In this document: positions 17,401 to 39,300 of the stretch, one piece after another | Position numbering within the stretch: the stretch's first letter is position 1 | Layout: each line of letters opens with the position of its first letter | Assembly: GCA_000004985.1 (NCBI GenBank) | Contig: GG738941.1 | DNA length: 45,328 nucleotides | Reading direction: 5' to 3' (one strand) | Origin: Naegleria gruberi | Lineage: Eukaryota | The notes under the pieces: generated by a model | Told to the model about the DNA's origin: nothing | What the model saw: the letters and a program-made list of their open reading frames with translations, nothing else | Database searches by the model: none | Translations under genes and position numbers: made by a program

Positions 17401-20400
17401 NNNNNNNNNNNNNNNNNNNNNNNNNNNNNNNNNNNNNNNNNNNNNNNNNNNNNNNNNNNNNNNNNNNNNNNNNNNNNNNNNNNNNNNNNNNNNNNNNNNN
17501 NNNNNNNNNNNNNNNNNNNNNNNNNNNNNNNNNNNNNNNNNNNNNNNNNNNNNNNNNNNNNNNNNNNNNNNNNNNNNNNNNNNNNNNNNNNNNNNNNNNN
17601 NNNNNNNNNNNNNNNNNNNNNNNNNNNNNNNNNNNNNNNNNNNNNNNNNNNNNNNNNNNNNNNNNNNNNNNNNNNNNNNNNNNNNNNNNNNNNNNNNNNN
17701 NNNNNNNNNNNNNNNNNNNNNNNNNNNNNNNNNNNNNNNNNNNNNNNNNNNNNNNNNNNNNNNNNNNNNNNNNNNNNNNNNNNNNNNNNNNNNNNNNNNN
17801 NNNNNNNNNNNNNNNNNNNNNNNNNNNNNNNNNNNNNNNNNNNNNNNNNNNNNNNNNNNNNNNNNNNNNNNNNNNNNNNNNNNNNNNNNNNNNNNNNNNN
17901 NNNNNNNNNNNNNNNNNNNNNNNNNNNNNNNNNNNNNNNNNNNNNNNNNNNNNNNNNNNNNNNNNNNNNNNNNNNNNNNNNNNNNNNNNNNNNNNNNNNN
18001 NNNNNNNNNNNNNNNNNNNNNNNNNNNNNNNNNNNNNNNNNNNNNNNNNNNNNNNNNNNNNNNNNNNNNNNNNNNNNNNNNNNNNNNNNNNNNNNNNNNN
18101 NNNNNNNNNNNNNNNNNNNNNNNNNNNNNNNNNNNNNNNNNNNNNNNNNNNNNNNNNNNNNNNNNNNNNNNNNNNNNNNNNNNNNNNNNNNNNNNNNNNN
18201 NNNNNNNNNNNNNNNNNNNNNNNNNNNNNNNNNNNNNNNNNNNNNNNNNNNNNNNNNNNNNNNNNNNNNNNNNNNNNNNNNNNNNNNNNNNNNNNNNNNN
18301 NNNNNNNNNNNNNNNNNNNNNNNNNNNNNNNNNNNNNNNNNNNNNNNNNNNNNNNNNNNNNNNNNNNNNNNNNNNNNNNNNNNNNNNNNNNNNNNNNNNN
18401 NNNNNNNNNNNNNNNNNNNNNNNNNNNNNNNNNNNNNNNNNNNNNNNNNNNNNNNNNNNNNNNNNNNNNNNNNNNNNNNNNNNNNNNNNNNNNNNNNNNN
18501 NNNNNNNNNNNNNNNNNNNNNNNNNNNNNNNNNNNNNNNNNNNNNNNNNNNNNNNNNNNNNNNNNNNNNNNNNNNNNNNNNNNNNNNNNNNNNNNNNNNN
18601 NNNNNNNNNNNNNNNNNNNNNNNNNNNNNNNNNNNNNNNNNNNNNNNNNNNNNNNNNNNNNNNNNNNNNNNNNNNNNNNNNNNNNNNNNNNNNNNNNNNN
18701 NNNNNNNNNNNNNNNNNNNNNNNNNNNNNNNNNNNNNNNNNNNNNNNNNNNNNNNNNNNNNNNNNNNNNNNNNNNNNNNNNNNNNNNNNNNNNNNNNNNN
18801 NNNNNNNNNNNNNNNNNNNNNNNNNNNNNNNNNNNNNNNNNNNNNNNNNNNNNNNNNNNNNNNNNNNNNNNNNNNNNNNNNNNNNNNNNNNNNNNNNNNN
18901 NNNNNNNNNNNNNNNNNNNNNNNNNNNNNNNNNNNNNNNNNNNNNNNNNNNNNNNNNNNNNNNNNNNNNNNNNNNNNNNNNNNNNNNNNNNNNNNNNNNN
19001 NNNNNNNNNNNNNNNNNNNNNNNNNNNNNNNNNNNNNNNNNNNNNNNNNNNNNNNNNNNNNNNNNNNNNNNNNNNNNNNNNNNNNNNNNNNNNNNNNNNN
19101 NNNNNNNNNNNNNNNNNNNNNNNNNNNNNNNNNNNNNNNNNNNNNNNNNNNNNNNNNNNNNNNNNNNNNNNNNNNNNNNNNNNNNNNNNNNNNNNNNNNN
19201 NNNNNNNNNNNNNNNNNNNNNNNNNNNNNNNNNNNNNNNNNNNNNNNNNNNNNNNNNNNNNNNNNNNNNNNNNNNNNNNNNNNNNNNNNNNNNNNNNNNN
19301 NNNNNNNNNNNNNNNNNNNNNNNNNNNNNNNNNNNNNNNNNNNNNNNNNNNNNNNNNNNNNNNNNNNNNNNNNNNNNNNNNNNNNNNNNNNNNNNNNNNN
19401 NNNNNNNNNNNNNNNNNNNNNNNNNNNNNNNNNNNNNNNNNNNNNNNNNNNNNNNNNNNNNNNNNNNNNNNNNNNNNNNNNNNNNNNNNNNNNNNNNNNN
19501 NNNNNNNNNNNNNNNNNNNNNNNNNNNNNNNNNNNNNNNNNNNNNNNNNNNNNNNNNNNNNNNNNNNNNNNNNNNNNNNNNNNNNNNNNNNNNNNNNNNN
19601 NNNNNNNNNNNNNNNNNNNNNNNNNNNNNNNNNNNNNNNNNNNNNNNNNNNNNNNNNNNNNNNNNNNNNNNNNNNNNNNNNNNNNNNNNNNNNNNNNNNN
19701 NNNNNNNNNNNNNNNNNNNNNNNNNNNNNNNNNNNNNNNNNNNNNNNNNNNNNNNNNNNNNNNNNNNNNNNNNNNNNNNNNNNNNNNNNNNNNNNNNNNN
19801 NNNNNNNNNNNNNNNNNNNNNNNNNNNNNNNNNNNNNNNNNNNNNNNNNNNNNNNNNNNNNNNNNNNNNNNNNNNNNNNNNNNNNNNNNNNNNNNNNNNN
19901 NNNNNNNNNNNNNNNNNNNNNNNNNNNNNNNNNNNNNNNNNNNNNNNNNNNNNNNNNNNNNNNNNNNNNNNNNNNNNNNNNNNNNNNNNNNNNNNNNNNN
20001 NNNNNNNNNNNNNNNNNNNNNNNNNNNNNNNNNNNNNNNNNNNNNNNNNNNNNNNNNNNNNNNNNNNNNNNNNNNNNNNNNNNNNNNNNNNNNNNNNNNN
20101 NNNNNNNNNNNNNNNNNNNNNNNNNNNNNNNNNNNNNNNNNNNNNNNNNNNNNNNNNNNNNNNNNNNNNNNNNNNNNNNNNNNNNNNNNNNNNNNNNNNN
20201 NNNNNNNNNNNNNNNNNNNNNNNNNNNNNNNNNNNNNNNNNNNNNNNNNNNNNNNNNNNNNNNNNNNNNNNNNNNNNNNNNNNNNNNNNNNNNNNNNNNN
20301 NNNNNNNNNNNNNNNNNNNNNNNNNNNNNNNNNNNNNNNNNNNNNNNNNNNNNNNNNNNNNNNNNNNNNNNNNNNNNNNNNNNNNNNNNNNNNNNNNNNN

Positions 20401-20461
20401 NNNNNNNNNNNNNNNNNNNNNNNNNNNNNNNNNNNNNNNNNNNNNNNNNNNNNNNNNNNNN
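8434..20461. other. Assembly gap (12028 N)
   Basis: Run of n. The ORF-track entries 8384..20509, 8410..21597 and 8421..20465 are artefacts spanning it. Confidence 1.
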
Positions 20462-21539
20462 ACAATCTGAATCATATAAACACTCTCTTGTACAATAAGA
20501 ATCACACATTTAGGATAACCAGTTATCGTATTGTAACAATAGTTAGTACTAGAACACGAATAAGGTGTAGCAGTACATTGATGGTAAGTTGATTCAGAAC
20601 TTTTAGTTTCACAAATTCCAGTACCTTTTCCAACACATTCCAGATCATTCACACATTCTGGAGCACAAATACCATTAGTACAAGAGGTATAACCAGTTTT
20701 TGTACATTCTGAACTATTGGAACAAGTTTTGGCGACACAATGTTGAGTTGTAATATCACAAACAGGCTTTCCATTAGTACCACATTCAATATCTGAAACA
20801 CACTCTGGTTTACATCTTCCAGTTGTCATATCACAAGTTGGTTTCTTTGGATCTATAGTACACATGTAATTTGCAAGGCATTCCTTAGTACAAACTTTTG
20901 AGGTCGGATTACAATATGAATAACCAGTATAAATACAATCAGAATCAGATGAACAAGGTAGCTCAACACATCTACCCTTAGATGTACTACAGAGATTGTA
21001 ATTGCTTCCCTTAATATTAGGAGCACAATCAGTGTTATTGTAACATTCAGGAAGACAACGATACTTTGTCATATCTTCCTTTAAGGAGCAAAATGGTTTT
21101 GGTTCGCTACAATCAGTATCAGCTGTACACTCCCTTCCGCATTTCTTTCCACTGTTACAGAAAGTAAAACCTTTTACAGTACAATCTGTATCAGCTGAAC
21201 AAGTTTTTTCAGTACAGACTTGGTTGACACATTCACTTTTTCCAATAGACAGGCCCTTTTCAACACAATCGTCATTAGTTAAACAGTCCGGTACACATGT
21301 ACGATAAGTTGAATCCATTTTAGTAGAACACTTTGGACGATCAGGAGTTGAACTACATTCCCAATTGGCAAAACATTGAGGAAGACAAGTTTTTTCTTGG
21401 AATGTTACATATCCGGATGGGAAGGCAATTTCTACATTTGGACCACGACAAACTGCTGCTCCTGGCAATGTACAATTCGAATCACTTGAACAAAGATTAG
21501 CCTTGCATTTGTATTTCACAGGTTGGGTAAACACCAACT
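20462..21539 (-). CDS. Cysteine-rich repeat region, 4 Cys per ~36 aa with a C-x-x-[DN]-[ST]-[DN]-C motif. It is the probable continuation of the upstream 1716-aa ORF after a +1 frame break, and is truncated by the gap
   Basis: Open frame from the gap edge to ~21597. It has no ATG near its 5' end; the track's M is a GTG. It encodes the same repeat type as the C-terminus of ORF 21497..26647 (KCKANLCSSDSNC..., CLPQCFANWEC..., CVPDCLTNDDC...). Confidence 0.5.
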
Positions 21540-24500
21540 GTTGATTTATCGATTCCTCTTTGTTCACAGTCAGTATTATTAAAACAAGCAGGTACACAAA
21601 CTTTTTGGTATGACTCTCCGGTAGGATCTGAAGTGCATGATGTTAAATATTTGTTATTATTGGATAGAGTTTGACAGCTGTCATCAGTCCAACATCCTCT
21701 AAGGTGTCCACATTTACCTGAATTACAACTTGGTAAAAGAGGATTCTTCTTAGTACAATAGTCAGAAATTCCATTTTCACTACATTCTTCAACGCAATAT
21801 CCATACAAAAATACAGCCGGATCAGTTTGACATCTTGGAGAAGTTTTTTGACTAGCACAATCACTGTCACTGTGACAGACAATACTACACTTTCCATCCG
21901 TACATTTTGGTAATGCATAGTTAGTAGTACATTCAAAATCGTATTGACATGCAACATAACCACATAAACCTTCTGAGCTACAGAGTGGTTTTTCAGGATC
22001 GAGAGTTTTACAATAAGAATTGGATGAACATTTTACAACACATTCGGTTCCATCCCAAACATATCCAGAGGCACATTTCATACAAGTAATTCTATCTTCA
22101 CCACAAACATCGCATTGGGTAGTGTTACCTGTAACACAGGATTTTACACACTTACGATATTCAGCAGTATTGTTTGGATTTGAACCGCATCTCTCAAAAC
22201 CAAATTCTTTACAATTGGTATGATTAGTACATTCAACTTCACAAGTACCAATATTAGTACATTTGGAATAATGATACGGATAACAATCAGAAGTGGCAGA
22301 ACAGCTTACACTGGAACAGTTAAAGGTTGTGAGATCACATTTAGGTGTTCCAGTAAATGGAGAGTCACAATCAGCATTACTTTTACAATTCTTGTACAAA
22401 CATCTGTGATAGGTTTCAATATTTGTCTTATCAGAACCACACTCAAAGTATTTACTACTTCCAACTGGACAATCCTTACTTTCCAAACATTCATTTCTAC
22501 AAATTGAATTATTACATTGAGAATATCCATAACTTTGACATTGGGTGTCATTTGCACAAGAGTACATTTTACAGCCACCATCGGAACAATAATGTTTTCC
22601 AATTGAGGTACAATTTTCATTTGATGTACATTCAGGAACACATTTTCCGTAACTGCCATCAGCACTCATTTTACATTTTGGTGTTGGTGAACTACATTGG
22701 CTATCTTGCATACATTCAGCAACGCATCTACCTTTGTAAGTGACATAGATGTCAATATCGACACATTTTGGGAAGTTTGGATCAGTACAAGGTGAAGCAT
22801 AATTTGGCCAACAAGTATCTTCGCGACACCATTTATATGAAGTAACGGTGGTATCGTATTCAGATTCTCTTGTAGTTCCACAATATTTCTTTCCATAAAT
22901 AGGACAATCACTAGTTGTTTCACAAAGTCTTCTTTCACATGTTTTACCTTTGAATCCTAAAGGACAAACACATGTTTCACTTCCGTCCTTATAGTGGAAA
23001 CATGTACCATTGTTTTCACAAGTTAAGGTTGAACAAGGAGTTTGAATTTCACAATATTGTCCAGAATATCCATTTGTACATGTTGTACAAGTATTATAAC
23101 CAGTACACTTTCCTCTTCCTGAACAAACTCTTTTTGAATCCAAGGCAGAAATACCATTACATTGGTCAACACAAGTGTTTGGAGCAATGCACATCTTTGT
23201 TCCATTACAAACACTAGCATTATTGGAAGGAATTCCATCACAAATTGGAATTTCACAATTTGATCCTGTCCAGGTTTCATTACAGCTACAATCATCATTA
23301 TCAACACAAGCACCACGACCAGAACAAACAGAAGCATTATTCGAAAGAATGGAGAAACAACTGAAATCTGAGCATTCACTACCATAGGCTCCTTCATTAC
23401 ATGAACAAACATTATTTGCTGTACAATTACCAGAACCAGAACATACAGAGCTATTACTTTGAGAAATTCCAAAACAAACCGGCTCAGTTACATTACAATT
23501 ACTTCCTTTCCATCCAAGATTACAATAACACTTATCAGTACAAACACCATTACCAGAACAAACCAATGTGCTTGTGCTTGGAATACCTGAACAACTTGCA
23601 AGACATACTTCCTTTGAGTGTTCGTAAAAACATACATAATTTGATGAGGCACAAGTTGTATTAACACAAGGAATTGATAATTCACAATTAACCCCATATC
23701 TACCATAATGGCATGAACAATTGTTCATTGAAACACATGTTCCTTCTCCAGAGCAAACATTAGCATTGGAAGCTGGAATCTTTGAACAAATAGGTTCACA
23801 AGTATTTGGTCCAATGCATTTAGCATCATTACCAAACATAGTACAACCAGCACTTCCATAACAAGTATAATTTTGACACATATTTCCAGTATATCCATCT
23901 TGACATGAACACATATCTGGTTTAACACATGTTCCGTGACCACTGCAAACAGCAGAGCTTAAAGAGCTGTTTCCATAACAGGAATACTCAGTGCAATCAT
24001 AACCACTATATCCAGGAAGACATGAACACTGTGTTAACTCCAAATTTAATTCTACATTAGTGTATCTACTACAATTACCACCATTACATGATAAATAACT
24101 AGCTGCTGGAACACCCTCACAAATAAGAGAGCAAGTTGCTTGATCAATATAGGTTTCAGAAACACATCCCTTTAATTGGGCAATATTGATATATTTAAGC
24201 TTGTTGTCAAAGAAATACAAATCATTTCCATAAAAGAAAATATCAAGAATATCAGAACCAGCCCCTCCAAAAACAACCTGAGAGAAGCTGCCACCAGAAA
24301 ATTTGCTAATTTGTTGTGCACCATATGTGTACAGCTCTCCAGCTGGATTGAATCTGAAATAAGAACCTGGACAACTCTCAGCTACTAACGTAGCACCACT
24401 TGCTTGACCAGGAGTCCAACTGTAAAGATCGGAATTCAAATGATACAATTTACCATTAAAATAGCGCAAAAATCCAAGAGCATAATCAGTTGATTCAGGT

Positions 24501-26647
24501 TGAATAGTTATTTGACTACCAGAATCAGTAAATTTACCAATTTTCCCTGACATTGAAACATAATATGTGTCAGTTTCAGGAACATATGTAAGAGATGTAG
24601 CTAAAGGAGGTCTACCAACAGTACCAAGATAAGTGGATGTTTTAGAAGTAAAAGAATACTTGTAGACATCACCATCACACAAGTACACCAAATCTCCAAA
24701 CTTGTTAAACAAAATGGATATTGAAGGATAGCAATCTAAATTAGAAATAAATGTGGTGACATTTCTTGTTGCCAAATCAAAAGCAAAAACTGACTTGTCA
24801 GCTACTGCTGAAGCATAGATAACACCATTGGAATAGACGAAAGCAGAGGCTTTGAGTTCAGCCAAACCAAGAGGTCCATAGAGTGGGAAAAGATCAATAT
24901 CAGTACGTTTTTCACATTGAGAACCTCCATAACCACTGTCACATGCACAATTGTTTTGAGAAATACATTTTCCTTTTCCTGAACAAACTTTTGGATCAGA
25001 AAAAGCTAATCCATAACAAGTGTCATAAGCCTTTGAACAATCAGAGCCATAGTGAGCCTTATCACAATAACAAAAGTCCTGTGCAACACAGACACCATGT
25101 CCAGAACAAACACTCGAGTTGAAATTGTAAACTCCATTGCATTTGTGAACACAAGTTTCAACTCCCTTCAAATAAAAACACTCTCCACCACAACCCATGT
25201 TTGATACACACGGTTTGAGGAATTCACAATTATTTCCAATAAAACCAAAGGAACATGAACAATTATTTTGTGAGCTACATTCTCCTACACCTGAGCAAAC
25301 AGAAGCACTTGATGCACCAATAGAATTGCATGTGTGTTCGCATGTATCTTGTGCAATACACTTGACCTCGAATCCGTGCTCGCTACATGCTAGAGGATTT
25401 TTATGAGCAATGTTGGAACAGTTGAATGGAGCAATTTCGCACTCAGGTCCATCCCAATCACCCTCACATTCACATATATCCACATCAATACAAACACCAC
25501 GACCAGAGCAAGCATTACTAGAAGCATTCTTACCAAAACATGGAATAACTTCACAATTAATACCACTTGTTCCAGGCTTACACGCACAACCAACAGTTTC
25601 GTTTTGTGAGGTTCCATTTTGTGGTAAGAATTCACTACATTGACCAACACCAGAACAAACATGTGCATCCAATCTACTCAATCCATTACAAACAATATCA
25701 CATGTGGTGTGATTAATAAACGCTTGATTCATACAACCTGAAGGAGTCAACTTTCTTGTAGCACTTCCTTCAGCTACATAAATGTTACCAAATTGATCGA
25801 AATCCAAACTAATTGGAGAAGCATCAGCAGAAAGAGCAGGACCATCATTACCAGTAACTCCAATAGTGCCTGTACCAAATATACGAACCTCCTTTGAACC
25901 AACAAGTCTGAAAACACCATCATCAGTAATCAAGAAAATAACACCAGATGGAGAAACTCTAAAGTTGGTATATTTAGTAGAGCTCAAAGTTATGAAATCA
26001 GTAGCCGAAGAGACACTTTCATCTTTTCCCCATATCTTGATTTTGTTATCCAATAACATGTAGAATTTGTTGTTGAACAATTGCAACTTTGCATTTGAGG
26101 TTTGGCTTATAAAGATTTGAATGCATGAACTAGGATAGTTAACAGATGAACAGAAAGAACCTGTTCTTTTACCATTAATACCATCACCATCACGAATTTG
26201 AATGAAATAAAGAATGTCTGTTGTTGGATCATAAGTGATTGATCTGACAAAATCTGACATGGACCACTTGGAAGTTTCTACGAGAATAGTTCTTTGATAG
26301 TTATGCAGAGAGAAGAGGAAAACATCAGTTTGCCCAAGCTCAGGCATAACAATTACATCTCCATTCTTGTTGATAATAAACTGGTCAAAATTGAGATTAC
26401 TAACCGAACCAAGGCTAGAAATAGAGTTAGAGCCATCAAGTACCTTGAAAGAAGTACCATCGCTAATGACCATCTTTTGGTTCCATGGCAAAACTGAATT
26501 ACCATAGTCGCAAACCTTAGAAACTGTATAGTTGAAATAGCTTCCACACATGGTGGGGCTATCACAGACATATGCTTGAGATGTCGTTGTAGCAAAACAT
26601 GCCCACAACAACAAGCTCAACCACAAAACAAACTCTGCCTTGGCCAT
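21497..26647 (-). CDS. Large secreted multidomain protein: signal peptide; beta-propeller/NHL-like region 1 (~25740-26570); EGF array 1 (~24910-25740); beta-propeller-like region 2 (~24140-24910); EGF array 2 (~22940-24140); 4-Cys repeat region (21497-22940)
   Basis: A 5151-nt uninterrupted ORF with a true ATG at 26647 in 'aaaaaaaatagATGgcc' context. N-terminus MAKAEFVLWLSLLLWACFATTTSQA|YV is a classic signal peptide. Dozens of 6-Cys EGF units of the form C[FY]GIxxxxxxVCSG[HR]GxCxxxxxCxCxxGYxGxxC. Repeats such as DFDQFGNIYVAEG and DILDIFFYGNDLYFFD are NHL/YD-like. Confidence 0.85.
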   Translation of the reverse strand: MAKAEFVLWLSLLLWACFATTTSQAYVCDSPTMCGSYFNYTVSKVCDYGNSVLPWNQKMVISDGTSFKVLDGSNSISSLGSVSNLNFDQFIINKNGDVIVMPELGQTDVFLFSLHNYQRTILVETSKWSMSDFVRSITYDPTTDILYFIQIRDGDGINGKRTGSFCSSVNYPSSCIQIFISQTSNAKLQLFNNKFYMLLDNKIKIWGKDESVSSATDFITLSSTKYTNFRVSPSGVIFLITDDGVFRLVGSKEVRIFGTGTIGVTGNDGPALSADASPISLDFDQFGNIYVAEGSATRKLTPSGCMNQAFINHTTCDIVCNGLSRLDAHVCSGVGQCSEFLPQNGTSQNETVGCACKPGTSGINCEVIPCFGKNASSNACSGRGVCIDVDICECEGDWDGPECEIAPFNCSNIAHKNPLACSEHGFEVKCIAQDTCEHTCNSIGASSASVCSGVGECSSQNNCSCSFGFIGNNCEFLKPCVSNMGCGGECFYLKGVETCVHKCNGVYNFNSSVCSGHGVCVAQDFCYCDKAHYGSDCSKAYDTCYGLAFSDPKVCSGKGKCISQNNCACDSGYGGSQCEKRTDIDLFPLYGPLGLAELKASAFVYSNGVIYASAVADKSVFAFDLATRNVTTFISNLDCYPSISILFNKFGDLVYLCDGDVYKYSFTSKTSTYLGTVGRPPLATSLTYVPETDTYYVSMSGKIGKFTDSGSQITIQPESTDYALGFLRYFNGKLYHLNSDLYSWTPGQASGATLVAESCPGSYFRFNPAGELYTYGAQQISKFSGGSFSQVVFGGAGSDILDIFFYGNDLYFFDNKLKYINIAQLKGCVSETYIDQATCSLICEGVPAASYLSCNGGNCSRYTNVELNLELTQCSCLPGYSGYDCTEYSCYGNSSLSSAVCSGHGTCVKPDMCSCQDGYTGNMCQNYTCYGSAGCTMFGNDAKCIGPNTCEPICSKIPASNANVCSGEGTCVSMNNCSCHYGRYGVNCELSIPCVNTTCASSNYVCFYEHSKEVCLASCSGIPSTSTLVCSGNGVCTDKCYCNLGWKGSNCNVTEPVCFGISQSNSSVCSGSGNCTANNVCSCNEGAYGSECSDFSCFSILSNNASVCSGRGACVDNDDCSCNETWTGSNCEIPICDGIPSNNASVCNGTKMCIAPNTCVDQCNGISALDSKRVCSGRGKCTGYNTCTTCTNGYSGQYCEIQTPCSTLTCENNGTCFHYKDGSETCVCPLGFKGKTCERRLCETTSDCPIYGKKYCGTTRESEYDTTVTSYKWCREDTCWPNYASPCTDPNFPKCVDIDIYVTYKGRCVAECMQDSQCSSPTPKCKMSADGSYGKCVPECTSNENCTSIGKHYCSDGGCKMYSCANDTQCQSYGYSQCNNSICRNECLESKDCPVGSSKYFECGSDKTNIETYHRCLYKNCKSNADCDSPFTGTPKCDLTTFNCSSVSCSATSDCYPYHYSKCTNIGTCEVECTNHTNCKEFGFERCGSNPNNTAEYRKCVKSCVTGNTTQCDVCGEDRITCMKCASGYVWDGTECVVKCSSNSYCKTLDPEKPLCSSEGLCGYVACQYDFECTTNYALPKCTDGKCSIVCHSDSDCASQKTSPRCQTDPAVFLYGYCVEECSENGISDYCTKKNPLLPSCNSGKCGHLRGCWTDDSCQTLSNNNKYLTSCTSDPTGESYQKVCVPACFNNTDCEQRGIDKSTVGVYPTCEIQMQG

Positions 26648-27054
26648 CTATTTTTTTTCTTCAATCAAGTCACAAGTAGGGACGATGTTAAATCGAATCT
26701 ATACACAGCTAAAAACCCATCACCCTATCCATTCTTACTCTTCAGTTCCTTATTTGATTTTGTTTAATAAGGCCAACGCATATTAGAGAGGATCCATTAA
26801 CAACCTTAATTAACGTAACCAGAACAAACAAGTAGCTATTTGCTCAATAATTTCCATTCCTGTCCTTCAGTACGCAAAACAAGCTGCAACCCACAACATT
26901 TGATTTGGGTTCCCAATAGTTTTGTACAAAGACCATCACAGACTTCCTATTCACTACGCACAAACCCTAACAAAATGTTTGCTTCGGAATCTTGAACATT
27001 CATCATGAGCAGTAGTGTTTTATCAAAAAAATTTACGCAGTTTTATCAAAAAAA
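26648..27054. promoter_or_regulatory. Divergent intergenic/promoter region between the minus giant gene and the Sel1 gene
   Basis: 407 bp between two divergently oriented ATGs, both with A-rich -1..-8 contexts. No ORF support. Confidence 0.4.
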
Positions 27055-28494
27055 ATGATAAGAAGTCATCAAGAGATTGCCAATTCCGAAATCGACGAGG
27101 AGCAATTAAATTCTGATCAGACCAATGATGATAATGATCCGAAAGTACAACCAAAGAGTAAAAAAATTATTCGTGTTGATATTCGTTCTTCCGATGGTAC
27201 ATCCTATCATTCCCTAGGTTGTAAGTGTAAAGATGAAAAGGATTATGGGAAAGCCTTTGAATGGTTTACGAAAGGTGCTGAGCAGGGGTGTGCGGAATCA
27301 ACATATAAAATTGGATACTTTTATGCGAATGGATTGGAAGTGGATACAGATTATTCGAAAGCTATGGAATGGTATTTGAAGGCTGCTGAAATGGGGTTTA
27401 CTAAACCAATAGTTCAAATTGGATATTTATATTTCTTTGGAAAAGGAGTTGAACAGGATTATGTGGAAGCTTTAAAGTGGTTTTTAAAAGCTGTCGAAAA
27501 GGGAAGTGCGGAAGCATACGTTAGTATGGGAAATTTATATTCTAAAGGAACAGGAGTGGAACGAGATCTCTCTAAAGCTATGGAATGGTATTTGAAGGCT
27601 GCAGAAAATGGTTGTTCAACAGCACAATTTAATATTGGGCGGTCTTATTATTTCGGTTTTGGAGTGGAAAGAAATTATTCGAAAGCGGTAGAATGGTATT
27701 TAAAAGCTGCTGAAAATGGAAATACATCTGCACAATTTAAAGTTGGATTTTTATTTGAAACGGGAAAGGGAATTGAGAAGAATTTCAAAAAAGAAGTGTT
27801 TTGGAAATCAAAATATTTTAATACTGATAATTTTACGTTTATTGAAGATCCTTACGATCAATTTGCAATTCAAAATTTTACACCAGCAGGGCTTTGTGAC
27901 GAAAAGGAAATTGAAGAGGATTCAATAATGGAAGAAGTAATTATTCGATTTGAAGAGAGAGATTTTACAATCGTACACAAATATTTGAAATCATGTAAAT
28001 ATTTAACAACAATGATGAATTCAAATTGGAAAGATTTTAATCTAAAAGAACAGAATTGTATAGTACTTGATTTGAGATCTGTTCAAAATCAAATATTTCA
28101 AACTCAAGAAAACACCAATCACATCCAAATATTTGAGAATTATGTGGAATATTTAACCAATAATGCCATACCAAATGATTTTGATATGAAATTGAAATTA
28201 ATAGAACTATCGAAATATTTACAAGATGATTCATGTATTTTGAAAATAGTTAATCAATCGAGTATTCTAATGAGACTATATTTTCTTTTCAAGTTTGAAA
28301 ATATTGAACCAGTTCATCTTGCAATTGCTAGCTGCTTTGTAATGGGTGATTTATTTACAACAATGAATGATCTTTCACCAAATAGTATTGAAACCTTGTT
28401 GAATGAAATTGAATTATCACCAATGGGAAAGAAGAAGATTTTGGATGTTCTAGTCAATAATAAGTTTCCAAACTCTGTAATATTCAGTAAGTAA
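27055..28494 (+). CDS. Sel1-like repeat (SLR/TPR-like) protein with a C-terminal BTB/POZ-like segment; the annotated stop is probably inside an intron donor
   Basis: ATG in 'caaaaaaaATGata' context. At least 5 tandem ~36-aa Sel1 repeats (KAMEWYLKAAEMG...IGYLYFFGKGVEQDYVEALKWF...). The downstream segment EVIIRFEERDFTIVHKYLKSCKYLTTMMNS resembles a BTB fold. The stop TAA 28492-94 lies within AG|GTAAGTAA. Confidence 0.8.
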   Translation: MIRSHQEIANSEIDEEQLNSDQTNDDNDPKVQPKSKKIIRVDIRSSDGTSYHSLGCKCKDEKDYGKAFEWFTKGAEQGCAESTYKIGYFYANGLEVDTDYSKAMEWYLKAAEMGFTKPIVQIGYLYFFGKGVEQDYVEALKWFLKAVEKGSAEAYVSMGNLYSKGTGVERDLSKAMEWYLKAAENGCSTAQFNIGRSYYFGFGVERNYSKAVEWYLKAAENGNTSAQFKVGFLFETGKGIEKNFKKEVFWKSKYFNTDNFTFIEDPYDQFAIQNFTPAGLCDEKEIEEDSIMEEVIIRFEERDFTIVHKYLKSCKYLTTMMNSNWKDFNLKEQNCIVLDLRSVQNQIFQTQENTNHIQIFENYVEYLTNNAIPNDFDMKLKLIELSKYLQDDSCILKIVNQSSILMRLYFLFKFENIEPVHLAIASCFVMGDLFTTMNDLSPNSIETLLNEIELSPMGKKKILDVLVNNKFPNSVIFSK

Positions 28495-28558
28495 CTCAAA
28501 AATAATTGAATATTAATATGGGCAGACAACAATAATATTGTGCACATTGAATTGACAG

Positions 28559-28830
28559 CAGCTTACAAACCAAAGACTATTTCATTCAAGAATGAAACTG
28601 TGAGTTTTACTCTGAGACGTTTCACAGCAGACGAAAGGGCCAGATACAATATTACAAGTTCGCACGACATTGAATTTTTGGGAAAGAAGATTTATGTTCA
28701 ATTAAACAGGGCAAAGGACAACATTGGATTTTGGTTGGATAATAATAACAAATTTGAAAACAAAACCATTATCAGATTACCCATTGTTAATTTTGAAACT
28801 ATCGATTTAGTTATTTTTATTGAATCATAA
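28559..28830 (+). CDS. Putative 3' exon of the Sel1/BTB gene, giving a model 27055..28486 + 28559..28830 with a 72-nt intron
   Basis: The ORF-track entry 28540..28830 starts on GTG and has no in-frame ATG. Donor GTAAGT at 28487 (phase 1) and acceptor ttgacAG at 28557-58 join in frame (...NSVIFS|TAYKPKTISFK...). The intron is AT-rich and carries an in-frame TAA. Confidence 0.4.
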
Positions 28831-28843
28831 TTTAATTGTATTA

Positions 28844-30238
28844 CTAGATCAAAATTTTCTTGAGAGAGGGAATCTTTGATTGAAGAACTTCAATTGGATC
28901 AATGAAGATGATTAAATTGTCTCTAATACTTATTATTTCAAGATTAGATAGTATTGAACTATTCGCAAAATCAATAATTCCCGTGTCAGATAAATTATTA
29001 TAATCCAAATTTAAACTTGTCAAATTTGATAAATAGATACTCGATGAAATGAGTTGTAAATGGCCATCGTTGAGAGAGGTACTGCTAAGATCTAGGTGCT
29101 TCAATGATTTAATATTAATCATCTCGAATAATTCCAAGCTAAATGTTGATCTTGAAAGAATAAGTGTCTCAATATTCGCGTTAGGAGTGGCCTTTTCATA
29201 TATGTCGAGTAGGAAATCAGCAGGACTAATTGAAAGTTTTCTAAGATTTGATAACTGCTTGCTATTAAGTATAGTTGACATTCCTGAAAGTGATATGTTA
29301 TTGTTCTCCAATGCTAGTTCCTTCAGATTGGTAAGGCTACTACCAGCAGACAATATAATACAGTCCCAAGCCATTCGGCAGGTAGAGGACAAATTCAAAT
29401 AAATCAACTTGGTCATATGTTCACTATTTGAAAGAGAGGTCAAAACCTCCGAATTAATACAAGACCCTTTCAAATTTAAATATTTCACATTTGAAAAGAT
29501 GGCATTGTTTAGCAGTTTGAAAACAGCGCTAGATTCTTCCATTCCCATAATAAATTCCTTTTGAGGAAAGCAATGCGTGATTGTGACTTTTTCTAGTTGT
29601 TTCACAAGTGATTTTTCATGAATATTTTGATCATTTTGAATTCCTGCAATAATTGACTTATTAATTTCCAAACTTGTCAAGTCTCTGAATATTTCATTAT
29701 TTAAGGTAGGAACAAAGTGCTTTCCAAACTCACAATTATCAAATACAAGTGATGTAATACCTCCCGAGTAATTTTTAAAAATTGAAAGACATTTTGAGAA
29801 TATAGCATCATCAATACCACTCATGATAACTGTTTTCAAATTTGTGCCACCCAACACATTGTCTTTCAGTAATGCTTTGATATCTTTTGCACGTAAAACG
29901 AGAGAGCTCACTCCTGAAAAGTATCCCTTCTTGAAACAGTTCATGAATGATTTCAAAGATTGACTGTCATATCTGCTCCTATAACTAGCATACGGTGAAT
30001 CGACAACATCAGAATCTTCCATAAAGTCTGGAAAATTCAACTCGTAATTTCTCAAACCATTGCAAATAAATTCATTAATATTTCTATTGATCAACCTTCC
30101 GATCCTATGCAACCAAACAATATCAAAACACGACAAGACATGTTCAAGTAATAACTCTTCTAAAAAGGCAATAGCTTGAAAAGGCTTTTCTGGAGGAATT
30201 TCAGAGAAGAAACAATGATACGATTCTCCAAAATACAT
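28844..30238 (-). CDS. F-box-like / leucine-rich-repeat (RNI-type) protein, 464 aa
   Basis: ORF 28844..30259 in the track, but its 'M' at 30259 is TTG. The first ATG is at 30238-30236 in 'aaaaacATGtat' context. N-terminal IPPEKPFQAIAFLEELLLEHVLSCFDIVWL is F-box-like. The C-terminal half has LRRs (LTSLNLDYNNLSDTGIIDF, LKHLDLSSTSLNDGHLQL). Confidence 0.7.
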   Translation of the reverse strand: MYFGESYHCFFSEIPPEKPFQAIAFLEELLLEHVLSCFDIVWLHRIGRLINRNINEFICNGLRNYELNFPDFMEDSDVVDSPYASYRSRYDSQSLKSFMNCFKKGYFSGVSSLVLRAKDIKALLKDNVLGGTNLKTVIMSGIDDAIFSKCLSIFKNYSGGITSLVFDNCEFGKHFVPTLNNEIFRDLTSLEINKSIIAGIQNDQNIHEKSLVKQLEKVTITHCFPQKEFIMGMEESSAVFKLLNNAIFSNVKYLNLKGSCINSEVLTSLSNSEHMTKLIYLNLSSTCRMAWDCIILSAGSSLTNLKELALENNNISLSGMSTILNSKQLSNLRKLSISPADFLLDIYEKATPNANIETLILSRSTFSLELFEMINIKSLKHLDLSSTSLNDGHLQLISSSIYLSNLTSLNLDYNNLSDTGIIDFANSSILSNLEIISIRDNLIIFIDPIEVLQSKIPSLKKILI

Positions 30239-33867: not shown

Positions 33868-35557
33868 ATGATCACACAACCAAACCATTCCATCACATCA
33901 AAAGTCACTGAAAATATCCTATTCTCTGATGATGCACTTTTTGAAATTTTATCTTTTCACAATGATTTTACATTTATTGTAACCAGTTGTGCATTAGTTT
34001 CGAAACAGTGGTTTAATGTCATTAAATATAATTGTAAACACCTCTCCATATCATATTATGGTGATCGGGAAATGGTTGGTCAATTTTTGGAAAATATTGC
34101 ACCTTGGAGTGAGAATGAATGAAGAAATTGGATTTAATTTACAGGTTTTGGATTCGATGAAAGGATTGAAAAAACTCAATTTAGAATACAATAATAATAT
34201 TGATCCAAACGGAATTAAGTATTTAGGCTCACTGAAACAATTGACTGATCTCAATATATCTTGTTGTTACATTGGATTGACTGAGAATTTGAGTTATTTG
34301 ACATTATTGAAAGCACTAACTCATCTTGATATAGCGAGTAATAATATTAGTGCAGAAGGAGCCAAATGCATTGGTGAAATGAAGCAATTGGCTAATCTTT
34401 CTATTGGTTCCAATGATATTGGAACAGAAGGAGCCAAGTATATTGGTGAAATGAAGCAATTGAAACAACTTCATATTGCTAATAATAATATTGGCCCAGA
34501 AGGAGCCAAGTACATTAGTGGTCTTGAACAATTAACTTATCTTGATATCTGTTTAAATGATATTAACGAATATGGAGCAAAGTGTATTAGTTAATTGAAA
34601 CAGTTGACTTACCTTGATTGTGTTGGAAACCGTATTTGTGATGGTGGAGCTAAATTTATAAGTGAAATGAAACAATTAACTAATCTTAATGTTCGACATA
34701 ATGATATTGATGAGGAGGGAGCCAAGTATATTAGTGAATTGATGAATGTAAGCACACTTGATATTAGTGGTAATTCTATTAATAAGAGGGGAGCCAAGTA
34801 TATTGGTGAAATGAAACAATTAACAGATCTTGGAATGTATTGTTGTAGCATTGGAGTGGAAGGAACAAAATATATTTCATCATTGAATCAATTAACTCAT
34901 CTTTCTATCAACATAAATAATATTGGGGATGAAGGAGCCAAGTACATTGGCCAAATCAAACAATTAACAGATCTTAGCATATGTGATAATAAGATTGGAA
35001 GTGAAGGAGTAAAATATATTGGTCAATTGAAAAATTTACTTAAACTTTACGTTTCTTGCAATGAGATTGGAGATAATGGAGCTCAATTTATAAGTGAAAT
35101 GAACCAATTGACTAAACTTGATATTTCGAGTGTTAATATTACACCAATAGGTATAAAATATATCAGTAAAATGGAGCATTTAATTGACCTAATGATTAGT
35201 GATAATAATATTGATTCGATGGGCGCAAAACATATCAGTCAAATGAAATTAACAAGTCTTGAAGTCTATAACAATACCATTGATGTTGAAGGAGCTAAAT
35301 ATCTAAGTGAAATGGAACAATTAACTAATCTTGAGATATCTAAAAATGAAATTGGTGACAAAGGTGTACAATTCTTAAGTGGAATGAAGCAATTAACCAG
35401 CCTTGACATAAATGAAAATAAGATAAGCGACGTGGGAGCCAAATATATTCTGGAAATGAAGAATTTGATAGATCTGAGTGTATTTGACAATGAGATCAGT
35501 GAGGATATAATTGAACGTTTAAGAGAAATGAAACAGTTAACTTATCTTGATATTTAA
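33868..35557 (+). CDS. F-box + RNI-type LRR protein locus, disrupted: F-box segment 33868..34122 (frame 1), LRR segment 34016..34591 (frame 2), in-frame TAA at 34592-34594, LRR segment 34595..35557; intron and/or pseudogene
   Basis: ATG at 33868 in 'ttaaaaaaATGatc' context. F-box motif ILFSDDALFEILSFHNDFTFIVTSCALVSKQWFNVI. There are then >20 tandem ~24-aa LRRs of type LTxLDISxNxIGxEGAKYI[SG]EMKQ. The LRR frame is +1 relative to the F-box frame. TAA 34592-94 sits where every other repeat has a GAA/CAA/GGA-type codon, the following TTG is in the same frame, and the repeat register continues across it. Confidence 0.6.
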
Positions 35558-36385
35558 AATAGGAAAATCTTTTATGTAATATACTTTTTCTTGAACCTTT
35601 GAAATGACAAAATGAAATCTATTCCACAAATGGATTTCTTTCTGTCTATTTGTAAACTCTCAAAGTGTGGTGAAATAAGTGTCACATCAGATCGAGAACT
35701 TTTCCTAATGGGCCACAAAATAACGACTTGTAAACTTTGCCAATAATCTTTTTCACTTTCGAATAACTCCTGGTTACCATGTGACACATTTGATGTTTTA
35801 AATAAATATTCAATCAAAAAAATCTTCATCACATGTAGCAGCAATTCCGCGTAAAATCTATAAATTTGTTTCCCATGACTTGTTCTTCATTAAATAATAA
35901 TATTAATTGTCAATATGGCAATGATGATAGTGATGAATTTTTTTAATTAAAATTACATTTGATTATTCAACATTTAAAGCGGTTCATCCTTCCGATTTAT
36001 CAACAATTAATTTTAAAAGGAGCACATACACATTATTGCGTAATGGCAAAAGGTCGACCAATTTTATCTGAACGAACGAGTTGTTGGGTTGTCTGCAAAC
36101 TATTACGATTCTCTAAAAACAGTGAGTTGCACTACAACTACCAATTATATCAGGCCGAACTCATCAATGAGAACCCTTCTTCCTGTTGGCTGTAAAGTAA
36201 TTCTTCCAGGAAAAACAGCTCGAGTGGGCGCCTTAATAACACAATAATAAGGAAACTGATGTTACACTTCAATAGAGATATTTGAAAAAACAACAAGACT
36301 CATCTTCTGTCTGACTAGTGAGAAATTACTCTCTTTTGAATTATTAAGCCCTGTAGTAGTTTCAAAGTAGTGGTAGTAATATAGC

Positions 36386-39300
36386 ATGACAATAACAACA
36401 ACAGGGAAGGTGTCATTAAGGGAAGGAGAAAACATGATGATGAAAATTCTACCTTCTCATCATCACCACTCTAAGAAATTTCACATGTTAAATTATACAT
36501 CATCAACAACAACTGTTGGCATTATTATTGTGGTGCTTTTTATGCTACTTATTAGTATGCATCTAATCACTTGTAGTTTTACTTGTAATTTTATTGACGA
36601 ATCAGATACATTGAATGTTTGTTCAGGAAATGGAACATGCATAGCCGATGATGAATGCCAATGTAATTCTGGCTTTTTGGGCAATAATTGTGAATATGTA
36701 CAGTGTTTTGGAATAAGTAATGAGATGGTACAACAAGTGTGTAATGGGCATGGTATTTGTATCGGGCCAGATGTTTGTTTATGTGACTATAATTATCAAG
36801 GTGAATCATGTAACCAAACCATACCAACACAACCAACACAACCTACGACGATAACATGTTTTGGAGTGGAAAAGAATACGCCAAATGTTTGTTCAGGTAG
36901 AGGAAGTTGTTCCCAACAAGATTTGTGCTCTTGCTCAGCTGGATTCAATGGACATAGATGTGAGAAGGACATTTTCGCTGGTTACAAACTGGTTTCGAGC
37001 TCAAATTTGATTATTGCTAAAAATTCAGAGACAAATGTAAATTTAACAGCCAGTATTGCAGCTACAGAAATAGTCCTCTCCTCAATTTATGGCTACGAAC
37101 CAGTAGCTTACATTCCACAAGGACAAGCCACTATTACCACAATCGATCCAAATGATTTGAATAACTTTGCTGGATTACTCTACAATGAGACTGAAAAGAA
37201 GGTTATTGAATTGTTTTCTCTTCCGTGTACTCAACAAATTTCAAATCCAGATACAGATATGAGTCGATTGATTGTTGTAAAACATGGTGGTGTCTATTGT
37301 ATGGATCAAGGTTGGAGAGTTGATGGTCATACTTTTGTAATTGTTGGAACTGAGACTGTAGTTTTCAAATTACCATTTGCTGTCTACACACAAGCCACCT
37401 TTTACTATTTGGAATGTGCTTCATATAGAAATGTATTTTGGATAACCTATGATGGACAAGTGGAGAGAACATCATTTTCAGGAAATGTTCATGGTACTAT
37501 TATTGGAATTGAATCAGGTTTTGATGTTTCTGATATTGTTTATGGATCTGTATGGTATTGGGGAAGATCCTCTCAAATTATGCTTTTTGAGGCAACATTT
37601 ACTGAGCCAATAACTTTCAATCAGGAGGAGCCATACTTTAGAGATGAATGTGCCAGAACTTATTGTTTTGGAATTATATCGAGTGATAATTCCAGTTGTA
37701 ATGGAAGAGGACTTTGTGTTGCCAATAATACGTGTCTCTGTAATGAGGAATCTTATGGCGACGAGTGTTCATTCTATGCATGTAATGGAATTACTGGAGA
37801 TGGATTTGGAGTTTGTACTGGACACGGAGATTGTATCGCCACAGACACTTGCTCCTGTCGTGATAATTATAATGGAACTTGGTGTGAGTGGACTACATGT
37901 GCTGGAATACCAAATACTGAATCAGAAGTTTGTAATAGCAGAGGTTTATGTTTGGATCACGATTCTTGTTCATGTGATCCCCAATTTGGATATGGAGGAG
38001 CAAATTGTGATATTCCAGTTTGTAATGGAGGTGTTGGAACTTGTACAGGATCTAGAGGTGTTTGTACAGCTCCTGATGTTTGTTTATGCTCTCCTGAATT
38101 CTTTGGTGAGTTTTGTGAAAAATCATTTTGTTATGGTATTGCCTCAAATGATAGTTCTGTATGTTCTGGTGGTCATGGTACTTGTCTGAATACAGATACA
38201 TGTGTTTGTCATGATGGCTACATGGGAACTTTATGTGATGGTTTCACATGTATGGGCTTTACCAATAATGACTCTGCAGTTTGTTCAGGAAGAGGATCAT
38301 GCATTGATGCCAACATGTGTCAATGTAATAATGGATTTACTGGTTCTAATTGTGAAATTTCAACTTGTTATGGTATTTCCAGTATTAACTCTTCATTTGT
38401 TTGTAGTGGAAAAGGAATTTGTACTGGTGTTGATACTTGTGTGTGTCAAAATAATTACACTGGTTACATGTGTCAGGAAACAACATGTGATGGTATTGAG
38501 TCAACCAATGAAACCGTTTGTAATGGACACGGCTCTTGTTTTCCTAAAGACAAATGTAATTGTCTTATTGAATTCGTTGGAGAAAAATGTCAATATCCAA
38601 CTTGCTTCGGTATTTCAGCACTAAATGAAAGTGTTTGTGGTGGAAGAGGAAATTGTACAGAATTGAATGAATGCAATTGTACAGAGAATTATTTGGGAGA
38701 GGAATGCCAATTGACAACTTGTAATGGAGTACCGTCAAATAGTTCCTTCACTTGTGGAGCACATGGACAATGTCTTGACTTTGATACTTGCCAATGTGAG
38801 GATTATTACTTAGGATCTTTTTGTGAAGAATTTGAATGTTTTGGAGTGTCAACCCATTCTTCATCTGTTTGTTCAGGAAGAGGTACTTGCTTAGCTTTTG
38901 ACAGCTGTGCTTGTAGTCCAAGTACATTTGGTGGAAATTGTGAATTTACTCGTTGTAATGGAACTATCAATACAGATCCACATGTGTGTAATGGATTGGG
39001 TTCATGTATTAACCCTGAAGTTTGTGTTTGTGTTCCAAATTATTTTGGTGATTTTTGCGAAGTAACAACTTGTGGTGGAGTTCCATCCAATTCCTCAAAC
39101 GTTTGTAATGGGCATGGTAGTTGTATTTCATTTAATACATGTATCTGTGAGGAGCTTTTTGCTGGAGCCACATGTGAAATGTTTCAAAACGATATATTTG
39201 CAGGATACAAATTAATTAGTACGAATCCAGTTTTGGTCAAGACTAATCCTTCCAATTATGCTCTCCTCAATGCCTCAATGTTGATTCCTTCAATGAATGC

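Follow-up and report, generated by a model that had tools for sequence, protein, structure and literature searches.

A putative 39-nt intron at the annotated stop codon of a Sel1-repeat gene in Naegleria gruberi

The Sel1-repeat gene that starts at position 27055 of a 45,328-nt stretch of Naegleria gruberi DNA (contig GG738941.1; the whole stretch is called the window here) is annotated as ending at a TAA next to a GTAAGT hexamer, and an open reading frame (ORF) lies directly downstream. This raises the question of whether the annotated stop is the true end of the gene or whether a short intron links the gene to the downstream ORF. A preliminary description had proposed a 72-nt intron ending at 28558. 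Comparisons with paralogous loci point to a gene that almost certainly continues past the annotated stop, where a very short intron, missing from the annotation, leads into a last exon of approximately 100 codons, and the length of this intron is most likely 39 nt, not 72 nt. Thus, the comparative evidence upholds the splicing idea insofar as the stop would not be the true end, the donor would be used, and a last exon would follow, whereas the acceptor at 28558 is probably wrong.

The annotated Sel1-repeat protein

The upstream part of the locus comprises the following features.
27055-28494, plus strand: annotated coding sequence of a Sel1-repeat protein (479 aa), with stop codon TAA at 28492-28494
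27055-28486, plus strand: proposed exon 1, 477 codons followed by A, the opening base of the junction codon

The annotated 479-aa product is identical to the N. gruberi "predicted protein" P0001. It carries five Sel1 repeats (Pfam PF08238; E = 4.9e-53; 176.1 bits versus a gathering cut-off of 30.7), and it is assigned to the Sel1 family on the basis of these multiple repeats above the Pfam gathering score. The family profile also matched Sel1-repeat proteins in the PDB, with E values down to 4.9e-98. The paralogs P0002 and P0003 share approximately 50 to 54% identity with P0001 as far as the residues FPNSVIF, and an in-frame 3-nt indel occurs at 28455 in another strain. C-terminal to the repeats, exon 1 encodes a conserved, mostly helical region of approximately 230 aa without a recognisable family. 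The gene had been labelled Sel1/BTB, and only the Sel1 part of this label is supported, with no BTB family found at E ≤ 0.1 for the whole protein or at E ≤ 10 for residues 293 to 477. A PDB profile search with the same residues returned no matches at E ≤ 10, and hhalign gave a probability of 0.1% against an approximate sequence of the PLZF BTB domain. The AlphaFold model of this region (pLDDT of 43.4) is only helical and too poor for fold comparison. The region may be a very divergent BTB.

Coding nature of the downstream ORF

28526-28830, plus strand: proposed exon 2 (terminal), 2 nt, 100 codons, and stop codon TAA at 28828-28830

The downstream ORF had been described as an orphan starting at 28559. 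The open frame in fact begins at 28510 and ends at 28830, remaining open for 106 codons, a stretch matched in only 5 of 5,000 shuffles. Its codon log-likelihood is +0.10 per codon, whereas off-frame reading gives -0.88 and intergenic sequence reaches at most -0.15. Copies of exon 2 are found at three loci, namely, the window and L003 and L004, which are paralogous Naegleria genomic contigs from metagenome run ERR1078381 and not from the reference strain. The three copies share amino acid identities of 31 to 40% over a fully open frame of approximately 100 codons, have 24 invariant residues, and all end at one alignment column. Identities at the first, second, and third codon positions are 0.55, 0.6 to 0.7, and 0.33 to 0.42, respectively, and in this respect exon 2 resembles exon 1. 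At the nucleotide level, only 35% of exon 2 positions are identical in all three copies, and the longest runs of identity measure 14 nt and, next, 5 nt. Homologs of exon 2 include P0006 (E = 2e-8) and P0008 (E = 7e-4 alone and 4.5e-43 with a profile). DUF7507 repeat proteins of Maribacter-like Bacteroidota (P0005 and P0007; 824 and 1,115 aa) were also considered as homologs, and their 26% identity was judged compositional; their match scores are sums over four to eight T/D/N-rich repeats.

The entire downstream ORF of the window lacks a Met codon, and the L004 copy has none until its last few residues. At all three loci the ORF lies on the same strand as a Sel1-family gene and directly after its end, which, together with the missing Met codons in the window and L004, rules out exon 2 as an independent gene. 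Taken together, the sequence comparisons indicate that the downstream ORF is real coding sequence and the last exon of the gene. Exon 2 probably encodes a lineage-specific, all-beta domain of approximately 100 aa without a known family; its AlphaFold model, with a pLDDT of 39.7, is too poor for fold comparison.

Putative donor site and intron position among paralogs

The putative donor and the two putative introns of the paralogs are as follows (a slash marks the exon-intron junction throughout).
28487-28492, plus strand: proposed 5' splice site GTAAGT in phase 1, preceded by TCA/ in the exon, conserved at three paralogous loci
L003, 618-660: intron of 43 nt, AG at 659-660, junction codon Asn (A/AT)
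L004, 11-55: intron of 45 nt, AG at 54-55, junction codon Asn (A/AT)

A GTAAGT 5' site is complementary to the 5' end of U1 snRNA. The hexamer had been singled out as a donor, and it is indeed present at 28487-28492 in phase 1, with no other copy within several kilobases on this strand; GTAAGT hexamers are, however, not enriched in the window, where eight copies occur on both strands of 27.9 kb of non-N sequence against approximately 19 expected from a base-composition estimate. One copy, at 27221, lies inside conserved coding sequence. The presence of GTAAGT alone is therefore rejected as evidence of splicing. Several details of the preliminary description also need amendment. The junction was given as ttcAG/GTAAGT and actually reads ttcA/GTAAGTaac, with a single G, so that the exon ends in A and the AG/GTAAGT consensus is absent. 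The stop codon overlaps the donor rather than lying embedded in it, with only its first base (T28492) falling within the hexamer. The AT richness of the interval is not distinctive, its G+C content being 28% versus 0.278 for 28001-29000.

The evidence for the donor comes from its conservation. The window, L003 (at 618), and L004 (at 11) all carry TCA/GTAAGT, unchanged and at one and the same codon phase, and the amino acids around it differ (VIF, LTF, and IAI). Beyond the donor the paralogs are unrelated in sequence, and reading on leads to a stop after 0, 14, 7, and 7 codons. The JGI model of P0002, which comes from an independent gene finder, uses the homologous donor; among published models it is alone in doing so, and it joins this donor to a distal acceptor and skips the domain exon. 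The C-terminal tail of P0002 was rejected as a homolog of the downstream ORF (BLASTP E = 0.16 to 0.53), and it corresponds to a separate distal exon in L004 whose counterpart is absent from the window and L003. P0003 probably has an intron at the same position too, since its model reads as far as FSK and then runs into unrelated sequence (FSKFILTFIY, followed by a stop). No homology could be detected between the convergent genes in the window and in L003 (E = 0.79), and no duplicated two-gene unit is claimed.

Apart from the splice sites and a motif resembling TTAAT, the introns of 39, 43, and 45 nt cannot be aligned with each other, and the three lengths are not congruent modulo 3. Thus, the flanks diverge in a coding manner and the interval in a noncoding manner, with free length and in-frame stops, as is characteristic of an intron. 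A further reading is unspliced joining, either by stop-codon readthrough or through a sequencing error separating the ORFs. Such joining could be imagined in the window, where the two ORFs share a frame and lie 15 codons apart, although readthrough would then have to pass two stops of different kinds, TAA and TGA. A sequencing error is contradicted by a separate, independent assembly of the window locus (L001 and L002; 99.5% identical), in which the interval is identical. The two L003 ORFs occupy different frames, which excludes readthrough there, and removal of 43 nt corrects the +1 frame difference. With the interval also being unconserved and varying in length by non-multiples of three, unspliced joining is effectively refuted by the L003 frame relationship and is regarded as extremely improbable.

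It is also very unlikely that no splicing occurs and that the gene ends at TAA 28492-28494, with the downstream ORF as a decaying relic exon or a 3' untranslated region remnant. This reading agrees with the public annotation, which ends at that TAA, with the lack of a transcript-derived protein across the junction in the searched collections, and with the nonenrichment of GTAAGT in the window. It could further draw on a 1-nt frame disruption in one paralog, L003, approximately 230 nt upstream of the donor; this disruption may reflect a pseudogene or an assembly error. However, three open copies that are still 31 to 40% identical, with a common end column and coding-type divergence, are unexpected for old relics, and the downstream codon score is coding-like. 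In addition, conservation extends to the dinucleotides at both splice sites and to their phases.

Choice of the 3' splice site

The candidate intron and the two acceptors considered are listed below.
28487-28525, plus strand: proposed intron of 39 nt, GTAAGTAACTCAAAAATAATTGAATATTAATATGGGCAG, both splice sites conserved in paralogs
28524-28525, plus strand: 3' splice site AG (GGGCAG/AC; CAG at 28523-28525), with homologous in-frame AG in L003 and L004
28557-28558, plus strand: acceptor AG of the preliminary description (TTGACAG/C), in frame, a possible alternative 3' site

In-frame joinability is not evidence in itself, because 26 in-frame, stop-free GT...AG pairs exist in this small region. 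The two window ORFs share a frame and would therefore be joined by every intron that spans both stops (TAA at 28492-28494, the annotated stop, and TGA at 28507-28509) and has a length divisible by three. The observation is nevertheless above chance because of the coding signature of the downstream ORF and the conservation of both the ORF and the splice sites among paralogs. No junction-spanning protein was found in collections of 5.8 billion and 1.84 billion sequences.

Removal of the 39 nt yields a 578-aa product without an internal stop, in which the junction codon is A/AC (Asn) and the junction peptide is FPNSVIFNNNNIVHIELTAAYK. GT-AG ends and a GTRAGT-type 5' site are found in the window, L003, and L004. 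An in-frame AG lies right before the motif N-x-N-I-[VL]-H at three of three loci (GGGCAG/AC, AATAG/AT, and TTTAG/AT), so that a YAG/AY acceptor is kept in frame throughout. Protein homology among the paralogs begins at this motif, which is encoded by 28526-28545 in the window. In L003, no in-frame acceptor other than the AG at 660 lies between the donor and the motif. The pyrimidine tract before the window 3' site is poor (ATGGGCAG). A single YTNAY branch-like motif is present in the window intron (TTAAT at 28513-28517, with the branch A 9 nt from the 3' end), and the paralog introns have TTAAC at 24 nt (L003) and CTAAT at 19 nt (L004). This consensus is not species-specific, and YTNAY-like motifs are frequent in AT-rich DNA.

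The same donor might instead be spliced to the AG at 28557-28558, giving a product of 567 aa either as the sole product or as an alternative 3' isoform. The basic observations behind this proposal were confirmed: 28487-28558 spans 72 nt and contains an in-frame stop (two, at 28492 and 28507), and joining 28486 to 28559 is in frame through the codon A+CA (Thr), with an ORF lacking ATG up to 28830. The predicted gain of 96 aa was miscounted: the 72-nt join extends the annotated 479 residues by 88, whereas 96 aa is what the ORF 28540-28830 encodes from its GTG start. The longer intron is of a more conventional size, the join (junction peptide FPNSVIFTAYK) is stop-free, and TTGACAG/C is a reasonable acceptor. 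Moreover, the branch A at 28516 is 42 nt from the AG at 28558 and 9 nt from the proximal AG, and steric skipping of the latter is conceivable. However, the 72-nt join loses 11 residues (NNNNIVHIELT), including 4 of the 24 invariant residues of the domain (N2, N4, I5, and H7). The sequence 28526-28558, which begins 33 nt upstream of the AG at 28558, is open, in frame, and conserved as protein. The homologous AG in L003 is in the wrong phase, and neither paralog has an acceptor at that place. Exclusive or alternative use of the distal AG is thus considered unlikely. For the 39-nt intron, we infer that the spliceosome would remove it by using the proximal AG and not the one located 33 nt downstream.

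Proposed gene structure and its significance

In the proposed structure, the gene from 27055 would have two exons, and the 39 nt between them (28487-28525) would be a canonical spliceosomal intron of the U2 type (GT-AG), the removal of which would join exon 1, in codon phase 1, to exon 2 (28526-28830). The predicted product would be 578 aa long, and its last 101 residues (the junction Asn and 100 codons) would make up a small lineage-specific domain that is probably all-beta. The public model of 479 aa would be truncated because it reads on into the intron, where it immediately meets TAA. The same intron position would be occupied in at least two paralogs, by introns of 43 and 45 nt. On the sequence comparisons, this two-exon structure with its 39-nt GT-AG intron and 578-aa product is judged probable.

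The average N. gruberi gene has 1.7 exons, and the mean intron is 203 bp (PMC8296547). For RNA-seq mapping in Naegleria fowleri, a minimum intron of 30 bp was set from an assessment of predicted genes (PMC8296547); introns of approximately 40 nt are therefore not out of range for the genus. An N. gruberi NEG-M RNA-seq project, PRJEB23822, is listed (PMC6142364), and no published intron-length distribution or splice-site consensus for N. gruberi was found in the literature. Genes on the scaffold are mostly single large ORFs. Another intron candidate in the window lies on the minus strand (33672 to 33604, 69 nt). A frame change near 34100 in an F-box/LRR gene was considered as an intron and rejected, as hand inspection gave no acceptable GT...AG pair; the gene looks like a pseudogene.

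One N. gruberi protein would have its gene model corrected by the proposed structure, and the correction would extend to a small paralog family (P0001, P0002, P0003, and the L003 locus). It would add a conserved domain of approximately 100 residues, and no annotated protein currently represents the exon-2 domain. Naegleria annotation can systematically overlook introns of approximately 40 nt that lie beside a stop codon, which is relevant to the re-annotation of heteroloboseans and to minimum-intron settings in RNA-seq mapping. This is an ordinary gene-model correction, the intron looking canonical and raising no new mechanistic question. A rather doubtful idea is that introns of 39 to 45 nt lie near the lower size limit in Naegleria and that their inefficient or conditional removal, or the choice of acceptor, serves as a switch. 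If true, the switch would set the C terminus, with the beta domain present (578 or 567 aa) or with the protein ending after the donor (479 aa).

Comparison with known systems

Sel1 repeats are common to the present protein, SEL1L/Hrd3, and bacterial SLR proteins. Here, five repeats occupy the N-terminal half, and the C-terminal 330 aa (the helical region and the exon-2 domain) have no counterpart in SEL1L/Hrd3, bacterial SLR proteins, or the searched databases.

With the U2-type introns of N. gruberi (approximately 0.7 per gene), the candidate intron shares GT...AG ends, the GTAAGT site, AT richness, and a possible branch motif of the YTNAY type. Further intron-like traits are its phase 1, a position conserved among paralogs, and in-frame stops upon retention. 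It differs from them in that the introns here, at 39 to 45 nt, are far below the 203-bp mean and in that the window pyrimidine tract is poor. In addition, none of the family members found has the intron in its public annotation.

Truncation of a gene model by reading into an unrecognised 3' intron is a common annotation error in protists with short introns. The same pattern is seen here, with coding sequences running into the intron until the first in-frame stop (P0001, FSK; P0003, FSKFILTFIY) and with the orphan terminal exon reported solely by prokaryote-style gene callers (P0004, P0006, and P0008). Nothing about this case is unusual except that the whole small paralog family is affected and that P0002 has been assigned another terminal exon, one that is not conserved.

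Ultra-short introns occur in ciliates (approximately 25 nt) and Giardia (35 nt), and short introns are found in fungi. The size class of the candidate introns overlaps the upper range of these systems and, as in them, the intron itself would be the unit recognised (intron definition), and the branch point would lie close to the 3' site. In contrast to those systems, there is no sign here of a distinct class of short introns in Naegleria or of modified splicing signals.

Proposed structure of the Sel1-repeat gene

The ORF at 27055 to 28494 was identified by protein search as an annotated 479-aa "predicted protein [Naegleria gruberi]" (P0001). We propose that a canonical GT-AG intron of 39 nt would be removed, joining exon 1 (27055 to 28486) to exon 2 (28526 to 28830) and yielding a spliced product of 578 aa. 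The public model would thus be cut off early because reading continues into the intron. Comparison with paralogous loci makes some splice from the donor at 28486/28487 into the downstream ORF very probable, and the 39-nt intron in particular is likely. No junction-spanning protein was found in the searched collections (5.8 billion proteins; 1.84 billion representatives).

The site reads ...AATATTCA/GTAAGTAACTC... (the slash marks the splice boundary), with GTAAGT at 28487 to 28492. A preliminary description had placed a 72-nt intron here, with an AG/GTAAGT donor in which the stop codon was embedded. That donor contains one G in excess, as the exon would end in ...TTC A in phase 1, and the stop TAA (28492 to 28494) has just its T in common with the GTAAGT hexamer. 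An AG at 28557 to 28558 does define a 72-nt interval (28487 to 28558), and 28486 joined to 28559 is in frame with the ORF reaching 28830, which lacks an ATG start and moreover contains no Met codon; the product of this join has 567 aa and exceeds the annotated protein by 88 residues, not by the 96 claimed. The two ORFs share one reading frame, interrupted by TAA (28492) and TGA (28507); the open part of the downstream frame already begins at 28510. In this AT-rich DNA, 26 different GT...AG pairs near the site give in-frame, stop-free joins. The two strands together hold eight copies of GTAAGT in 27.9 kb, which is rarer than predicted from base composition, and one copy in the window falls within conserved coding sequence. 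Taken alone, the features at the site are no more than chance expectation. Because the overlap of stop and donor is found in the window paralog only, it is coincidental rather than a matter of design.

Conservation of the splice sites

Three downstream ORFs were called on contigs from one ENA/Logan run, ERR1078381 (PRJEB11402), which is a metagenome and not the reference strain. Contigs L001 and L002 carry the window locus at 99.5% identity (compared over 27205 to 29864), apart from nine substitutions and an AAT inserted in frame at 28455, which adds Asn to ..VNNK.., and are identical to it from 28456 to 29246; a closely related Naegleria strain is evidently present in the sample. L003 and L004 are paralogous loci, and L004 corresponds to that of P0002, an annotated paralog whose unusual C-terminal tail matches L004 530 to 640 at 95% identity. 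The splice sites at the three loci are as follows.

Window 28486/28487, donor TCA/GTAAGT
L003 617/618, donor TCA/GTAAGT
L004 10/11, donor TCA/GTAAGT
Window 28525/28526, acceptor GGGCAG/AC
L003 660/661, acceptor AATAG/AT
L004 55/56, acceptor TTTAG/AT

The donors occupy the same codon phase at all three loci. The 9-nt identical run at the donor points to constraint at the nucleotide level, since the nearby amino acids vary between loci (VIF, LTF, and IAI) and exon 2 shows three-way identity at only 35% of its columns, its longest identical run being 14 nt, at the GFWL[DE] motif, and the next 5 nt. Past "S-K" the translations are unrelated, with the window stopping at once, L003 after 14 codons, and L004 and the P0003 paralog model (ending ...STVFSKFILTFIY) after 7 each. 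A second candidate intron with TTC A/GTAAGT ... TTTTTAG/ lies in a small Cys-rich ORF on the minus strand (33672 to 33604, 69 nt), and its removal gives an in-frame ...NSEGNESIDCWF-K-RETCGCDQYHN followed by a stop.

Protein homology restarts at N-x-N-I-[VL]-H, and an in-frame AG stands exactly there in each of the three loci, with Asn as the junction codon throughout. The predicted introns are 39 (window), 43 (L003), and 45 nt (L004) long, have G+C contents of 21 to 26%, contain stops, and have no sequence in common except their splice sites and a motif like TTAAT. The two L003 ORFs differ in reading frame, and between its GTAAGT donor and the conserved motif a single acceptor, the AG at 660, gives an in-frame join. 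This result rules out readthrough joining both ORFs and shows that no coding constraint acts on the interval. Compared with the window, L003 also lacks one nucleotide within an A/T-rich run at about 375 to 385 (ATTTTGAAAA to ATTTAAAAA), which puts the upstream ORF out of frame ~230 nt ahead of the donor; L003 may be a pseudogene, or the contig may be misassembled there.

The AG at 28558 may serve as an alternative 3' site: measured from the branch A (28516) of the window's only YTNAY motif, the proximal AG is just 9 nt away and the distal AG 42 nt, and the 39- and 72-nt joins are both in frame. However, the AG at 28558 is set 33 nt into the conserved coding region, its use would remove NNNNIVHIELT, including 4 of the 24 invariant residues of the domain, and the AG at the homologous position of L003 is in the wrong phase. 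The earlier proposal of a spliced C terminus holds in outline, but its acceptor is probably wrong, with an intron of 39 nt and not 72.

Coding status of the downstream ORF

Several lines of evidence show that the downstream ORF is real coding sequence. Its 106-codon open stretch (within 28496 to 28843) was equalled by 5 of 5,000 composition-preserving shuffles. In codon-usage log-likelihood it scores +0.10 per codon, against -0.36 to -1.0 in the remaining five frames (references: in-frame gene windows, 0.43 ± 0.21; off-frame windows of known genes, -0.88 ± 0.39; intergenic maximum, -0.15). When 1.84 billion representatives were searched exhaustively with HMMER, the ORF itself (P0004) and the relatives P0006 (47% identity) and P0008 (35%) were recovered, and a profile built from three sequences returned only these three from 5.8 billion proteins. 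The exon-2 copies of the window, L003, and L004 share 31 to 40% protein identity and stop at one shared alignment column. Their nucleotide identities at codon positions 1, 2, and 3 are 0.54 to 0.55, 0.59 to 0.70, and 0.33 to 0.42, a pattern that matches that of the upstream exon (0.56, 0.62, and 0.39) and is the mark of purifying selection on the downstream frame.

Two Maribacter-like DUF7507 repeat proteins of Bacteroidota (P0005 and P0007) also matched the 106-aa query (E = 9e-16 and 3e-4). These scores sum 8 and 4 weak, T/D/N-rich repeat matches (..TW.DN.DGTHTYTV..) at 26% identity and are probably an artefact that composition or repeats produce when whole sequences are scored.

Protein domains and scaffold context

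Five Sel1 repeats occupy the N-terminal half (E = 4.9e-53 in Pfam, and as low as 5e-98 against Sel1 proteins in the PDB), followed by a region of about 230 aa conserved among P0001 to P0003. The BTB label previously given to the gene found no support in this region, which had no matches at E ≤ 10 in Pfam or in a PDB profile search and an hhalign probability of 0.1% against a PLZF BTB sequence. AlphaFold predicts it as helix-only (pLDDT 43) and the exon-2 domain, which has no Pfam match, as all-beta (pLDDT 40), both at low confidence. Other features of the scaffold are as follows.

1100 to 6455, assembly gap, 5,356 Ns
8434 to 20461, assembly gap, 12,028 Ns
21497 to 26647, minus strand, giant Cys-rich ORF, 1,716 aa, signal-peptide-like start and EGF-like Cys spacing
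27006 to 27059, upstream ORF, 17 codons, MSSSVLSKKFTQFYQKK and stop
33868 to 35557, plus strand, F-box/LRR repeat gene region
36380 to 45328, plus strand, giant Cys-rich ORF, at least 2,983 aa, 10% Cys, continuing past the scaffold end

The upstream ORF ends in ATGA, overlapping the Sel1 gene ATG at 27055, with an A8 run just before; it could be a uORF, or a homopolymer length error could conceal a longer Sel1 N terminus. The F-box/LRR gene has an in-frame TAA at 34592 to 34594, where AGT TAA TTG (..CIS-stop-LKQL..) replaces the GAA ATG (..ISEMKQL..) of sister repeats. Its F-box ORF (to 34122) and LRR ORF lie in different frames, for which hand inspection yielded no acceptable GT...AG solution; a pseudogene or errors in the assembly are the probable explanation. 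The window is an entire N. gruberi scaffold, and its two N runs together span ~17.4 kb (38% of the scaffold), and giant 'ORFs' called across them are meaningless.

Annotation of the paralog family

P0002 and P0003 both appear to be mis-modelled at one shared intron. The P0003 model makes the same error as P0001, reading into the intron (..FSKFILTFIY, then stop). The P0002 model takes the homologous donor but pairs it with a distal acceptor, ACAG/GG, 517 nt away (L004 11 to 527), which shows that an independent gene finder recognised the donor; it skips the conserved domain exon and ends in an unconserved 60-aa tail to which nothing in the window or in L003 corresponds. Its terminal exon is probably a mis-prediction.

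N. gruberi has 1.7 exons per gene and a mean spliceosomal intron length of 203 bp, and a 30-bp minimum intron, "based on an assessment of predicted genes," was used in N. fowleri RNA-seq mapping (PMC8296547). That minimum is the sole pointer, as no N. gruberi intron-length distribution was found in the published literature. The observation points to a real feature that is conserved yet ordinary, a short spliceosomal intron and terminal exon missing from the annotation, and its effect is an annotation correction across a small paralog family.
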